From the IMG/VR virus record IMGVR_UViG_3300045988_122700: a DNA stretch of 41,278 nt; one strand, given 5' to 3'. Shown piece by piece: positions 31,828 through 38,328 of the stretch; the stretch's first letter is position 1; the number at the start of each line of letters is the position of its first letter. The notes beneath the pieces are model-generated. The model saw only the letters and a list, made by a program, of their open reading frames with translations. It was not told the origin of the DNA and did not search any database. The stretch comes from a virus. A program made the position numbers and the translations under genes.

Positions 31828-34800
31828 ATGGACGCTGAAAAAATGCGACTGCTACAAACAGAGTTTGATTCAAGATATGATCCAATAACATATAATGCTA
31901 TGCGTGAGCAGAAAGAGCTCAGCTTTGAGCAACGGCGTTTTGACTTCATGGATAAACAAGCAGTAAAGGACAGAGAATGGAAAGATGCAAAAGCGTTATA
32001 TAATGGCTCTGTTAATCTTTTAGAACGGTCAATTGTAGGATCTTTGACAATGGCTAGGGATTATAATATCGCCACAAGACAAAAACAAAACCCTAATTAC
32101 CAGCCCATGCAAGAAGGTGTAGCAATTTTAGATGACATATTGCAGTCAGATCATCTACAACCATATGCTGTTAAAGGTGACAGTCCCGCTGAACAGTATC
32201 GTTTAGATTTAATGCAAGGAGCTGGGCAATTAGGGACACAAGCAGCAGCTGCTGTTTTGGCTGGCCCTGTTGGCAGTACAGCATTAATGGGTGCTCAGAT
32301 TGCAGGTAATCAGTATCTGGATTTGAGAGCAGAAGGCGTAGATGTCGAAAGGGCAGCAGGAGCAAGTATTGCTAATGCTATTATGCAAACTCCGCTTGAG
32401 CGCTTGTCGCTAAATAAGATTTTAAAAGGTGTTCCAGCAAATAGTGGGATTAAAAAGAAACTTTTGCAAATCGGCGAGAGTGCATTAACAGAAGGGTTAA
32501 CCGAATTTGCCCAACAATATCCAGAAGAAATTACCAATTTAATTGCAAGGAATGAAGGCGAAACAGCACGAGAAATCGCAGCTGAATTCGATGCCAACGC
32601 AGGCGAGTACACAAAGAATGCACTCTATGCAGCTTCGATAGGCGCTATTTTAGGTGGTGGTGCTTCGTCAATTCGAGTTGCCTTGGATAGAAACATTCAT
32701 AAAACGCAGTTAGAAACACTTGATTATAGAATTGATGCTGTTTCCCAAAGTGGTGTAGAATCAGATTTTGCGGCAAGCATAATCAATGCAAATACAGGCA
32801 ATGCAACTGTTTCAATTGATGGTGAGGTTCTTTATCAGTATGCGCAGACACAGAATCTAAATGAGCTTGCAGCTGAACTGGGAATAGAGGCAGGAGATAT
32901 TCAAAAGGCGGCAGCGGATGGACTTGATGTAGAAATACTCCAAGGTAACTTTGAGGTTACAGCTGGTAAACGTCATGACTTTTATGAAGCAGTGCGAGAT
33001 ACAGTTGCCTTTGAGAGTGGGGGCACTACAGTAAATAGTGCAAAGATGCAAAGTGAAATCCAGAAACAAAGCCAAAAACTTGAAGCGTCAAACCATGAAT
33101 TTGAAGTATGGAAAGATGAAAAGCTAGGGCAACTGCTGGGCGCTGGACTAAATAAGTCAGAGGCAATAAGCACAATGGCGTTTCTTGAAAGCACTGCCAG
33201 AACATATAATCCTGTTGATCCAACTCAGTATTTCAGAGATCACCCTTTGGAAGTAAAGAGAGTTGTTAGTACCCCGAACGGCAGATACTTACAGAACAAA
33301 AGTGCTAGTGAGAAACTGCTTGAGGACGAAAACAATTTTTCCAGTATTGTTGATGAATATGTTTCTGGAGAAATAAGCGACACAAAAACTTACAACGTAA
33401 TGACTACACCGCTTGCACTAGAACTTGCAGGCGGTAAAATTTTGCCTGTAACTATTGATGGGAGCAAAATAAAGCATATTTTTGATGGGCACTCTGACGG
33501 GATGACACCAGAACTGTTGAAACAAATTCCTCGTGCAATGGCCGATCCAATGATGATATTGGATTCTTATGCCGGTCGTAAGATTGTAGTGCTTGATTTA
33601 AAGGATAATCAGGGGTCTACTATTATTGTTCCTTTAGAACTTGACGTAGAACGTAGTTGGTATAAAGTTAATGCGATTGCGAGTGCTTATGGTAAAGGTG
33701 GAGAAAGTGGTACAGATTATAACTGGTTTATAGAACACAATCTAAAAAAAGGTAGAGTAGCATATGTAAATAAAGAAAAGACTGCCAAGTGGCTACCTTC
33801 TCCTAGCAGCGATTCCGCTAGCAGAATAACCGACCTTGACAGTCTTCTTAATAATAGTATACCAGATGAAAATGCGCTACGCAAGAGACGTGAAGAAATG
33901 CAGGGATACTACCAGACAGCTTTTCACGGAAGCCCGCATAAATTTGAAAAGTTTGATTTGGGTGCTATTGGTACGGGAACAGGCGTACAGGCGCATGGCT
34001 GGGGATTGTATTTTGCTTTCAGTAAAAATACCGCTAAGCGGTACAGGGATAGATTGAAGGGAAGTCGTGATGCATATACCGATGAAGGATCTCTGGTAGA
34101 AGTTGATATCCCTGAAAATGATGTATTACTTGATGAAGGAAAAGCTATTGAAAAACAACCGCCTAAAGTGCGTGCGATTATCGAAACTGAATTAGAAAGA
34201 ATTGGCGGTAGCGCGTCTAATGGAAAAAGTTTTTATAAAGAAATAATATTTGAAATGCAAAGGATGGGAGCAGAAAACCCTGCCAGAGCAGCATCTGAAC
34301 ATTTAAATAAATTAGGCATAAAAGGCATTAAATATGTTGGAATGGTAGACGGAGAATCATATGTTATTTTTGACGATCAGGCAATAAAGATAATCAACAG
34401 TTACAATCAGAAAGTCAACAACGACAAAAAAGGCTCTATCTCTTGGGATGCAGAAGGCAAAGCAATTATAAACCTTTTTGAAGGTTCTGACCCCAGTACA
34501 GTAATTCATGAAGCAATCGGGCATTACTTTACAGAAAATCTCATGAAATACAGTGAGCTTCCTACAGCTACAGAACAGATGCGCAAAGACCGGCAGATCA
34601 TGCTTGAGTATGCCGAGATAACCGAGAGCGAGTGGAACGAACTTAACAAGCCACATTCTCAACTTACCGAAGCCCAGATGGAAAAGAAAACAGCAGTGCA
34701 TGAGCGTTGGGCTACAGCGGCAGAGCAATATATGATGCTGGGCAAAGCACCAAGTCCAGAATTGCGCGGGGCAATGAAGCGCTTTAAAGATTGGCTTTTA

Positions 34801-37800: not shown

Positions 37801-38328
37801 AGGCGAGAAGTTGGTATTGCACAGAGCCTATGGAGTAAGGGAGATAAGGAGAAAGCATTCAAGCGAGCACTCTCATACCTTATTGCAAAATACTTTGCGT
37901 TCACATTGATAAGCACAGCATTAGCCTTTGAAGATCCATTTGAAGAAGATGATAGAGATGGATACTTGAATTGGTTTAAAGAACTTCTTACTTATCCGAC
38001 TACAATGCTTGGCCCTGTAGGTGGAGCTGCAAGTGCAATGATTTCGACAATGACAGGTATGTCAATGTATGGATACAGGCTCACACCAATTCAAAGCGTT
38101 CCGGAACAGGTACTTAGAATGGGTAGCAAGGTAAGATCAGTTGCAGAGGGCAAAGCTGATTCGGAAGAACTTATTGAACCAGCTGCAGGGCTTCTTGGAC
38201 TTTATTTTGAAGTACCAAACCAGGTTAATAAGATAGTCTTTAATGCCTATGATATTTTACATAACGACATGACCCCGCGCCTGAGTGATGTTATAAGGCG
38301 TCGTCCAAAGAAAGAGCGTGGCGAATAA
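31828..38328 (+). CDS. Giant virion 'polyvalent' protein (2166 aa). Regions: a conserved unknown domain (~aa 520-650); a PARP-like H-Y-E ADP-ribosyltransferase segment (~aa 690-860); an HExxH zincin motif (aa 894-898); long helical regions; and C-terminal TM helices.
   Basis: The RBS is cgaggtgaggttATG. ...AFHGSPHKF...GWGLYFAFSKNTAKRY...GESYVIFDD parallels the PARP1 H-G-S / GKGIYFADMVSKSANY / ...EYIVYD catalytic elements. VIHEAIGHYF is a zincin HExxH. The C-terminal TM segments are YLIAKYFAFTLISTALAF and LGPVGGAASAMISTMTGM. Confidence 0.8.
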   Translation: MDAEKMRLLQTEFDSRYDPITYNAMREQKELSFEQRRFDFMDKQAVKDREWKDAKALYNGSVNLLERSIVGSLTMARDYNIATRQKQNPNYQPMQEGVAILDDILQSDHLQPYAVKGDSPAEQYRLDLMQGAGQLGTQAAAAVLAGPVGSTALMGAQIAGNQYLDLRAEGVDVERAAGASIANAIMQTPLERLSLNKILKGVPANSGIKKKLLQIGESALTEGLTEFAQQYPEEITNLIARNEGETAREIAAEFDANAGEYTKNALYAASIGAILGGGASSIRVALDRNIHKTQLETLDYRIDAVSQSGVESDFAASIINANTGNATVSIDGEVLYQYAQTQNLNELAAELGIEAGDIQKAAADGLDVEILQGNFEVTAGKRHDFYEAVRDTVAFESGGTTVNSAKMQSEIQKQSQKLEASNHEFEVWKDEKLGQLLGAGLNKSEAISTMAFLESTARTYNPVDPTQYFRDHPLEVKRVVSTPNGRYLQNKSASEKLLEDENNFSSIVDEYVSGEISDTKTYNVMTTPLALELAGGKILPVTIDGSKIKHIFDGHSDGMTPELLKQIPRAMADPMMILDSYAGRKIVVLDLKDNQGSTIIVPLELDVERSWYKVNAIASAYGKGGESGTDYNWFIEHNLKKGRVAYVNKEKTAKWLPSPSSDSASRITDLDSLLNNSIPDENALRKRREEMQGYYQTAFHGSPHKFEKFDLGAIGTGTGVQAHGWGLYFAFSKNTAKRYRDRLKGSRDAYTDEGSLVEVDIPENDVLLDEGKAIEKQPPKVRAIIETELERIGGSASNGKSFYKEIIFEMQRMGAENPARAASEHLNKLGIKGIKYVGMVDGESYVIFDDQAIKIINSYNQKVNNDKKGSISWDAEGKAIINLFEGSDPSTVIHEAIGHYFTENLMKYSELPTATEQMRKDRQIMLEYAEITESEWNELNKPHSQLTEAQMEKKTAVHERWATAAEQYMMLGKAPSPELRGAMKRFKDWLLNIYKTVDEFVKNHKYAVAITPEVKAVFDRMLASRDAIESMERVDGYFAKIPDVITDNMSEASKKRLQDVILKAHDKAVSLLTKESLANFTGERKQKIEEYRAEVLPGVREDLSRQPLYMAEQMLVEDFSKHKTGKAVGRYYNSLIARTLDIEAKPLTEAETLEVMQFDTIAEFNGFKSGDELAQALLSEPSLNQAVTEKANVLVNERFPDIMAERKSAEEAAREALYNDDSGLVIGVEYQIIEDAAAGILGQQRSTEAMLSLARARRQQARAAAKAELASMKMQDAINVRRYMAAERKAFAKSIEYAAKKDFPKAAEYKRQQALNNALVQESAALKAKHDTWKRYITRQLKAKKETWGTDQHFVQAGALFARMGLPKRGYDPMMRTQTLAEYVVEINTERDGNAGIASWLLDESVDLTNPLKTLNPYQFEDVIDALKNIKAIGRYENQARIADREETLADLKSKVLDATSKMKTRWEGGPNSNNKTSAIADYFIEMTSADNFFEEADGWTQGKFSEVFADGIQAAANKESRYLFEYEKAMSDAILELAPTRQERNALARESWNEELQANVTRYNLIKMLAYMGTESSSNKLCSTADTSTYKEFFSNSSLWVEGDPQQTRDNLIEFLGRTLTEAEVKYTQKLVDASGKAWNELVEVERRTKGFAPQKEEATPILLTLANGKKVAFAGGYLPLVRYSDSGSKPMSTNIVTPTDGFVPTNNIRTMSTVAGSTKSRDNSVYPLDLRPGAESWNIRETIHDVAFRETIDTYRKLLSDSEVYSQLKRKFGVKRFKVLLQYVENAARTNDGATEDITSTLKIVNLMRRKLTNTVILGNLKILSQNYGNPMLYGNNVEGFGHSDVIGAYAKFYKNINRQGWWREQTEFAYQKSAWMRERSQSPDYTLTVLREEQGQKEGFAKFVNDVSVEAMVFTDNMTALPVWIEAYHKKINSGASEDIAVRYADTVVRRGLGATRRYDVAPVMRGGPWAKLFTMFQSFANARYNEARREVGIAQSLWSKGDKEKAFKRALSYLIAKYFAFTLISTALAFEDPFEEDDRDGYLNWFKELLTYPTTMLGPVGGAASAMISTMTGMSMYGYRLTPIQSVPEQVLRMGSKVRSVAEGKADSEELIEPAAGLLGLYFEVPNQVNKIVFNAYDILHNDMTPRLSDVIRRRPKKERGE

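Follow-up and report, generated by a model that had tools for sequence, protein, structure and literature searches.

A probable polyvalent ejection protein with an exchangeable ADP-ribosyltransferase cassette in a temperate podovirus

Virus record IMGVR_UViG_3300045988_122700 is a stretch of 41,278 nucleotides (nt; hereafter the window) in which a giant gene at 31828..38328 encodes a protein of 2166 amino acids (aa). The product is probably a polyvalent ejection protein that joins a MuF-C domain, an ADP-ribosyltransferase (ART) domain, a zincin-type peptidase motif and a long C-terminal module. It is best read as an internal core (ejection) protein, the largest of its set, from a BPP-1/T7-like podovirus that is temperate and integrated in the genome of a diderm bacterium. 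MuF-C, ART-PolyVal and a metallopeptidase (MPTase) motif are found in one polypeptide amid virion genes; the polyvalent class is recognized by two or more unrelated effector-type domains in a single large product of virion or transfer gene blocks. An initial annotation of this DNA had already joined an ART, a zincin and a hydrophobic C-terminus in a polyvalent virion protein, and this interpretation holds, although several of its details were wrong. The class assignment agrees with the position of the gene, which corresponds to that of gp16 and follows gp13-like and gp14-like genes, and with orthologues that carry LPD22, PBECR1 or PBECR3, ART-PolyVal and Zeta toxin domains.

Reading frame, domains and predicted enzymes

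The 2166-aa product comes from a single uninterrupted open reading frame (ORF) on the plus strand, from ATG to stop, as the ORF listing and translation confirm and as originally described. At 41% G+C, 2166 codons are far beyond chance, and the ORF is real. A strong Shine-Dalgarno sequence, GAGGTGAGG, precedes the gene, and its ATG lies 4 nt past the stop of a 691-codon gene; the giant gene is translationally coupled inside the virion gene block. Its parts are listed here.

31828..38328, plus strand: whole gene, for a probable 2166-aa polyvalent internal virion (ejection) protein at the T7 gp16 / BPP-1 Bbp10 position (ORF and synteny)
32206..33063, plus strand: N-terminal conserved domain, aa 127-412 (hhalign to proteobacterial orthologues, hydropathy)
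33490..33783, plus strand: MuF-C/PBECR domain, aa 555-652 (Pfam PF18819)
33916..34443, plus strand: swappable 176-aa cassette, aa 697-872, with the ART-PolyVal domain at aa ~697-860
33925-33927, 34009-34011, 34132-34134 and 34372-34374, plus strand: ART family residues H700, Y728, D769 and D849
34429..34917, plus strand: candidate zincin-like MPTase, aa ~868-1030 (motif conservation)
34507-34524, plus strand: HEAIGH helix, aa 894-899
34702-34704 and 34723-34725, plus strand: invariant second-helix glutamates E959 and E966 (alignment columns)
34399..38217, plus strand: conserved C-terminal module, aa 858-2130 (phrog_9880)
37870..37929, plus strand: hydrophobic helix, aa 2015-2034, LSYLIAKYFAFTLISTALAF (Kyte-Doolittle), a candidate membrane-inserting segment

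The ART domain belongs to the ART-PolyVal family by homology, fold and residues, and its catalytic activity is predicted. With aa 662-1010 as query, 26 homologous proteins were retrieved, and most of these have PF18760 (ART-PolyVal) in precomputed annotation. Matches of phmmer that bear PF18760 include P0006 (4.5e-51), P0009 (1e-28) and P0011-P0019 (1e-12 to 2e-16), against 5.8 billion sequences. In gp39 of Caulobacter phage Jess A, ART-PolyVal occupies the same aligned position and scores 79 bits (E=6e-22). The family motifs are intact in our protein, namely FHGSPH (H700), IGTGxGxQAxGxGLYFA (Y728), LD (D769), LGIKGIKY and FDD (D849), and the alignment retains every family-invariant residue (H700, Y728, D769, D849 and the glycine-rich loop). 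An AlphaFold model built from the homologue alignment, with a mean predicted local distance difference test (pLDDT) score of 83 and a predicted template modelling score (pTM) of 0.79, confirmed the ART fold, a split beta-sheet as in PARP and diphtheria toxin. Its strands run in the order H strand, Y strand, two strands, a helical insert and three strands. This order matches that of the secondary-structure elements of diphtheria toxin, and the strand of toxin residue E148 would then correspond to aa 842-847. H700 lies in FHGSPH on strand aa 695-702, Y728 in GLYFA on strand 726-730, and D849 in YVIFDD right after strand 842-847; all three are conserved in the ART alignment. A profile of this alignment found nothing significant among PDB sequences, and hhalign gave no meaningful alignment to an approximate sequence of the diphtheria toxin A-fragment.

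The ART-PolyVal (N4-ART) clade is of the H-Y-D type, with His on strand 1, Tyr on strand 2 and Asp on strand 5 (PMC5512222). The segment had been described as a PARP-type H-Y-E enzyme; its identity as an ART stands on fold and homology, and the type is to be corrected to H-Y-D ART-PolyVal (PMC5512222). The glutamate meant at the time was probably E758 in LVEVDIP, a column that varies between E, K, T and R in the family. In our ART and its closest relatives another glutamate, E843 (34354-34356), opens the strand that is matched by order to the strand of the diphtheria toxin catalytic Glu, a position taken by Ser, Thr, Arg or Gln in ART-PolyVal proteins at large. This sub-clade might have regained an H-Y-E-like arrangement besides D849. 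Literature searches found no biochemical study of the ART-PolyVal family.

The best-scoring domain of the protein was not mentioned in the initial annotation. Pfam places MuF-C (PF18819) at aa 555-652 with 61.1 bits against a cut-off of 27.6 (E=1.3e-16), over 94 of 103 profile positions. This MuF-C/PBECR segment is a predicted RNase-like domain. Conserved H550 and H555 (KHIFDGH) stand just upstream of it and at its start, a SAYGK motif is likewise conserved in the Negativicute-type clade to which our protein belongs, and HIFxKH is conserved in the clade alignment. Further upstream, aa 127-412 align to residues 208-505 of proteobacterial orthologues in a local hhalign comparison with the N-termini of the Negativicute clade as query (probability 97.7%, E=1.5e-12). 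In those orthologues the equivalent region comes after an LPD22 domain; a Pfam scan and hhalign did not detect LPD22 in aa 1-126 of our protein. Hydropathy shows Gly/Ala-rich, moderately hydrophobic segments at aa ~141-159 and ~268-286. An NCBIfam scan of the giant protein and two neighbours found no family.

Downstream of the ART, a regular-expression scan found one HEAIGH sequence (HExxxH) at aa 894-899, the only motif of HExxH/HExxxH type in the protein. The module had been described as HExxH, a spacing that occurs nowhere in the 2166 aa; a zincin-type motif is nevertheless present and conserved. With 25 His residues in the protein, the chance expectation is ~0.02-0.05 motifs per protein for either spacing. 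In all seven orthologues examined, the sole HExxH of the whole protein aligns to HEAIGH, and the columns that are invariant across the eight sequences at ~22% identity include H894, E895, H899, E959 and E966. The motif is kept in 133 of 137 homologous segments, 20 with HExxH and 113 with HExxxH; these 113 constitute the entire Negativicute-type clade, our protein included. Three of the four remaining segments lack the N-terminal part, and one has Asn for the first His. The last case, a metagenomic fragment of 306 aa (P0024), reads ANEAGH instead of HExxH in an MPTase segment that is otherwise well aligned, and may be a naturally inactivated peptidase. A HEXXXH set of polyvalent-protein metallopeptidases has been explicitly described (PMC5512222).

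An AlphaFold model of aa 862-1067 (pLDDT 82.5) consists of a beta-hairpin, the motif helix and further long helices, and both HEAIGH and E959/E966 lie on predicted helices after the hairpin. Foldseek found no match for the MPTase model in the PDB, and a Pfam scan of 23 MPTase segments gave scattered weak matches and no peptidase family. A profile search of PDB sequences gave a non-significant alignment to the SprT protease Spartan on the motif helix (E=1.2). The neighbours of the segment, weak in structure and in sequence alike, are zincins that cleave proteins (lethal-factor-like, MtfA, ArdC and Spartan). Motif conservation thus supports a metallopeptidase well, and the fold leaves it unconfirmed. 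Of the two folds on which the initial annotation had staked its reading, the ART was confirmed and the zincin found weak matches only.

The rest of the protein is a conserved module. The family phrog_9880, of unknown function, covers aa 857-2130 (E=5e-130), and tblastn found the C-module in 59 phage records, those of Bordetella BPP-1 (Bbp10) and 58 others, including Caulobacter (Jess A and relatives), Pseudomonas, Vibrio, Xanthomonas, Nostoc and Microcystis phages. An alignment profile of the C-module matched 1370 proteins at E<=1e-10, and more than 1000 metagenomic proteins share the module; a word-indexed search with aa 858-1200 alone had given close relatives only, and the broad family was collected with an alignment query. 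Members of the clade differ in length only upstream of the metal motif, from which the C-terminus is a constant 1271-1275 aa away. A phmmer search of PDB sequences with the whole protein found no match. The C-module is presumed to be the ejectosome-forming part.

Transmembrane helices had been placed at aa ~1930-2010. The C-terminal part is hydrophobic as claimed, and Kyte-Doolittle analysis resolves one helix, at aa 2015-2034. The sole clearly hydrophobic 19-residue window is aa 2015-2033, with a mean of 1.45, and an acidic cluster follows the helix in our protein. An equivalent segment is found 134-151 residues from the C-terminus in 15 of 15 orthologues examined, at ~22% identity, and ranks second or third in three of these.

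The N-terminal halves of homologues differ in their domains. Pfam finds LPD22 alone, LPD22 with ART-PolyVal (as in Jess A gp39), LPD22 with PBECR1 (as in Bbp10) or PBECR3, Zeta toxin with or without ParB, MuF-C alone, MuF-C with ART, and MuF-C with LPD3 and ART. Larger orthologues also exist, for instance of 4013 aa in L005 (Nostoc phage Nsp-JY18, PP438410) and of 2793 aa in L007 (MW202640, a spring-water podovirus). A protein 100% identical to ours (P0031) is present in public assemblies, and its 90%-identity cluster includes GenBank DAW68262.1, labelled ‘crystallin beta/gamma motif-containing protein [Caudoviricetes sp.]’. Many entries carry this crystallin label or ‘lysin’, apparently propagated from the BPP-1 annotation, and Pfam scans found no crystallin domain in our protein or in Bbp10. 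One orthologue was named ‘conjugative element/phage-associated large polyvalent protein’ by JGI.

A single site of cassette exchange

Length variation in the clade maps to one site, which lies between ...EEMQGYYQ (aa ~689-696) and ...WDAEGKAI (aa ~873). Among 105 full-length relatives its states are as follows.

73 of 105: site empty, with a 10-residue linker
25 of 105: 176-aa cassette with the same ART as ours
3 of 105: different ART allele, 29% identical (HGT...GFYF...EYVVFE)
1 of 105: mosaic of our ART
3 of 105: site without anchor motifs to delimit it; one protein of the three has LPD3 and another ART upstream of the metal motif

Proteins of a diverged lineage that carry our cassette are 61-70% identical to ours in the N-terminal part and 52.6-52.8% in the C-module, and 88-91% identical in the cassette. 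The reverse is seen in P0034, where the flanks are 93-97% identical and the cassette 70%. From the empty sites and these contrasts in identity it follows that the protein can perform its core function without the cassette, which is passed between lineages or replaced, as one would expect of an exchangeable effector and not of a structural element. A bolder view, which we rate as less likely than not, is that the ART cassette is an injected anti-defence or host-takeover enzyme that moves horizontally among diverged gut Negativicute prophages through one dedicated slot, with the adjacent HExxxH protease releasing it after entry.

Virion module, host and neighbouring genes

PHROG and Pfam scans of the neighbours identified genes for the terminase large subunit at 19082, a T7-type portal at 20767 (PF12236), the major capsid protein at 23530 and tail tubular protein A at 25362. 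The nozzle (tail tubular B, phrog_376) is split into ORFs of 291 aa (25985-26860) and 558 aa (26860-28536) on the plus strand, which match profile positions 2-206 and 218-709; in vir555 and BPP-1 the nozzle is one gene of ~680 aa. The split is not a sequencing error, because contigs with a 97%-identical giant protein (L008-L011) share it. No tail tube, sheath or chaperone genes were found in the structural module by these scans. Between the nozzle and the giant gene lie its presumed partners, and a hairpin follows it.

28533..31823, plus strand: partner ejection-protein genes (gp13-like, gp14-like and 691-aa)
28533-28985, plus strand: gp13-like internal virion protein (PHROG)
29089-29733, plus strand: gp14-like protein (PF24072 T7_gp14, 25.6 bits, just below cut-off)
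29748-31823, plus strand: 691-aa protein at the gp15 position (by position)
38332..38357, no strand assigned: GC-rich hairpin directly 3' of the stop (terminator scan)

The gp13-like and gp14-like genes match the ‘internal virion protein’ families phrog_308 and phrog_418. The 691-aa protein has no family match in Pfam, PHROG or NCBIfam, and phmmer found no similarity to Bbp11, Jess A gp40, vir555_53 or the equivalent in Vibrio phage MZH0603. No peptidoglycan hydrolase or lytic transglycosylase was detected in the ejection-protein set of this phage, whereas Bbp11 and Jess A gp40 carry an SLT domain. Since the order of the neighbours equals that of T7 gp8-gp16, the giant gene stands at the gp16 position; it is a gp16-type ejection protein by position and not by sequence homology. 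The same order is found in BPP-1, Jess A and vir555, where capsid, tube A and nozzle genes are followed by those of a gp14-like protein, a protein of ~570-760 aa (with SLT in BPP-1 and Jess A), a protein of ~2000 aa and a tail protein or fibre.

The left 6.2 kb of the window is host chromosome with the prophage edge. A tyrosine integrase gene (6483-7583, minus strand) adjoins genes for a YadA-type trimeric autotransporter adhesin (1204-2148, plus strand) and a classical pertactin-type autotransporter with a beta-barrel domain (3036-6203, plus strand). Autotransporter genes beside the integrase indicate a prophage in an outer-membrane (diderm) bacterium. A tRNA scan of the window found none. 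A GTDB scan of one genome per species with an alignment query gave one locus, in the Negativicute Phascolarctobacterium faecium DSM 14760 (45% identity over aa 107-2164); an earlier GTDB scan with the single protein had given 24 pattern matches, none of them confirmed. The host is probably a Negativicute such as Phascolarctobacterium, and the diderm Firmicute suggested by the initial annotation is plausible in the light of both the autotransporters and the P. faecium match. Megablast of 22 kb of the window found no match among 50,697 phage records.

The gene had been taken for the end of the late operon, which does not agree with the genes that follow. The hairpin at 38332-38357 scores as a terminator for a convergent DUF805 gene, a 421-aa ORF at the tail-fibre position starts at 39025, and contigs with a 97%-identical protein next have DUF4376, holin and M15 endolysin genes. 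The DUF805 membrane-protein gene (38437-38820, minus strand), which separates the giant gene from the 421-aa ORF, looks like a moron, comes with promoter-like sites and a strong terminator hairpin of its own, and is conserved in all four related contigs. In L008 (contig SRR31518615_19054, a 97%-identical copy), downstream of the endolysin gene, lie genes (20663-22784) that encode an NA37 nucleoid-associated protein and a nucleotidyltransferase of the RelA/SpoT family. These may be prophage cargo of a region before which the window stops.

Proposed delivery, rival readings and known systems

Our proposal for delivery and catalysis as a whole is more guarded than the identity of the protein, and we put its chances slightly short of even. 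A few copies would be packaged in the capsid atop the portal, together with the gp13-like, gp14-like and 691-aa proteins, and expelled through the tail at infection. The ~1270-aa C-module and its hydrophobic helix would then help to form a trans-envelope conduit for DNA, while the N-terminal half would carry pre-made enzymes into the cell before phage gene expression. These would be the MuF-C/PBECR RNase-like domain and the H-Y-D ART, which would use host NAD+ to modify a target in the host, for example a component of defence or transcription. The zincin-like HExxxH domain, at the junction of effectors and conduit, would most likely cut the polypeptide and so release or activate the effectors, and an autoproteolytic or effector-releasing role has been proposed for polyvalent metallopeptidases (PMC5512222). 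For comparison, proteomics detected gp47, a polyvalent protein of phi24B, in virions, and an ejection role was proposed for it (bioRxiv 10.64898/2026.04.10.717836); a T7-type Gp15 is reported as a moonlighting CBASS inhibitor (bioRxiv 10.1101/2025.07.23.666291).

Several points weigh against this proposal. Packaging, ejection, topology, enzymatic activity, target and self-cleavage are all steps that we infer. The C-module profile has no match at E<=0.1 among all PDB sequences, which include the solved ejection proteins; with no relative among these, the conduit role rests on gene position. The ART-PolyVal match at aa 692-857 (E=1.8e-5) scores 26.0 bits, less than the Pfam gathering cut-off of 31.2, and is classed as ‘faint’ in precomputed hits. 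Our ART lacks the variable helical insert of 60-85 aa present in most family members, which probably explains the low score. D849 would be the family Asp by strand order in the model and by conservation. Finally, the ART domain resembles a chain of the cyanophage A4 pre-ejectosome, where the ART-like domain may be structural rather than catalytic.

The last point belongs to an unlikely alternative, in which the product is a purely structural core protein whose ART-like, PBECR-like and HExxxH segments are catalytically dead scaffolds that pack the core or bind DNA. The A4 chain in question is most likely gp27, an outer-layer ejection protein of 1717 aa; hhalign finds a local motif match in it, with YHGT...GTYFS at residues 1425-1456 and later strands similar to ours, and the FDD motif is absent. 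The outer-layer proteins gp26 and gp27 bind a ring of DNA (PMC12002296), and the MuF-C domain of phage Mu itself is considered inactive (PMC5512222). A Pfam scan of A-4L gp26, gp27 and gp28 found no ART-PolyVal, and ‘ADP-ribosyl’ was not found in the text of the cyanophage A4 paper. Our domain, however, keeps all the family-invariant ART residues, and the cassette is not needed for the core, being absent from 73 of the 105 relatives. Its higher conservation than that of its flanks (88-91% against 53-70%) and its replacement by another allele are typical of exchangeable effectors.

Slightly less probable again is a reading in which the enzymes act on the envelope, with the zincin-like domain as a peptidoglycan or lipoprotein peptidase that opens the wall and does not cleave its own chain. 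Some wall-opening activity is indeed missing, as no lytic transglycosylase is detectable in the ejection set; the phi24B authors propose such a role for the gp47 metallopeptidase (bioRxiv 10.64898/2026.04.10.717836), and A4 gp28 carries an M23 peptidase. Yet the MPTase is equally conserved where the partner protein has SLT, and is therefore no substitute for it. The ART and RNase-like domains need cytoplasmic NAD+ and RNA, and the weak neighbours of the MPTase cleave proteins rather than cell walls. Very improbable, by our estimate, is a protein of a long-tailed phage, either tape-measure-like or part of the tail, or else an unpackaged toxin encoded by the prophage. The large size and the many helices of the protein would suit such a reading, and related entries bear the name ‘tail protein’, ‘lysin’ or ‘crystallin beta/gamma motif-containing protein’. 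The tape measure and the unpackaged toxin are both rejected on account of the podoviral structural module, with its genes for a T7-type portal, tail tube A, a nozzle and a gp14-like protein. Translational coupling within the virion block and orthologues at identical positions in isolated podophages also speak against them.

Among known systems, the polyvalent ejection protein proposed here is closest to Bbp10 of BPP-1 (2052 aa) and its Rauchvirus-like orthologues, found in Caulobacter phage Jess A (gp39), Pseudomonas phages AF and UFJF_PfDIW6, Vibrio phage MZH0603 and vir555. They are encoded in the same slot, preceded by genes for the gp14-like and ~700-aa proteins and followed by that for the tail fibre, and have the same layout of an N-terminal domain, a variable effector region and a ~1270-aa C-module that starts with HExx(x)H; Jess A shares ART-PolyVal with our protein. 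In contrast, identity is ~22-26%, ours has MuF-C instead of LPD22 and, like its whole clade, a one-residue insertion in the metal motif (HExxxH). Its 691-aa partner is unrelated in sequence to those of BPP-1 and Jess A, with no SLT detected.

The gene also resembles that of T7 gp16 in coming last among the internal core genes of a T7-like order and in being the largest of them. T7 gp16 itself carries an SLT domain. Enzymes are fused to ejection proteins elsewhere, for instance a lytic transglycosylase and M23 peptidase in A4 gp28 and an RNA polymerase (RNAP) in N4 (N4 vRNAP). Compared with T7 gp16, PhiM1 gp48-50, N4 vRNAP and A4 gp26-29, the predicted cargo of our protein (ART and RNase-like) is directed to the cytoplasm and is not muralytic. 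T4 Alt and the anti-CRISPR ART AcrIF11 act at or soon after DNA entry, as our ART would. AcrIF11 is expressed after entry and is not known to be packaged. Alt, a head-packaged ART and the model of an injected one, is a small protein of its own from the R-S-E clade (PMC5512222), whereas ours is of the H-Y-D type and embedded in a 2166-aa ejection protein.

The polyvalent class was described by Iyer, Burroughs, Anand, de Souza and Aravind in 2017, and our protein is likewise large, multidomain and placed among virion genes (PMC5512222). Its polyvalent part differs from theirs in being fused to a conserved ejectosome-type module, with effectors in one defined swap site. The initial annotation had called the activity unexplored, but head-packaged ARTs in polyvalent proteins were published in 2017 and 2022 (PMC5512222, PMC9503650). 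The text of PMC5512222 has no mention of BPP-1, Bordetella or the T7-like internal-virion-protein position, and a connection between this polyvalent family and the gp16 slot of BPP-1-like podophages may be drawn here for the first time. The same may hold for the single swap site (empty, ART or alternative ART), the lineage-wide HExxxH and the ART-like domain of A4 gp27. With the concept known since 2017 and 2022 and a 100%-identical sequence public, the protein is a good experimental system rather than a conceptual surprise.

Proteins injected with phage DNA precede phage expression and are the earliest possible counter-measures to bacterial immunity; for polyvalent proteins such a function was predicted in 2017. 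The gene described here offers a test case, with a defined cargo slot in an ejection-positioned protein and natural variants that are empty, carry this ART or carry another. It also corrects the propagated database label ‘crystallin beta/gamma motif-containing protein’. Hosts are likely to be Negativicutes that abound in the human gut and whose phage biology is little studied. If the view of the cassette as an injected and horizontally moving enzyme is true, these phages would possess a natural plug-in slot for pre-made effectors delivered before the genome, its states being empty, this ART or an unrelated ART allele.

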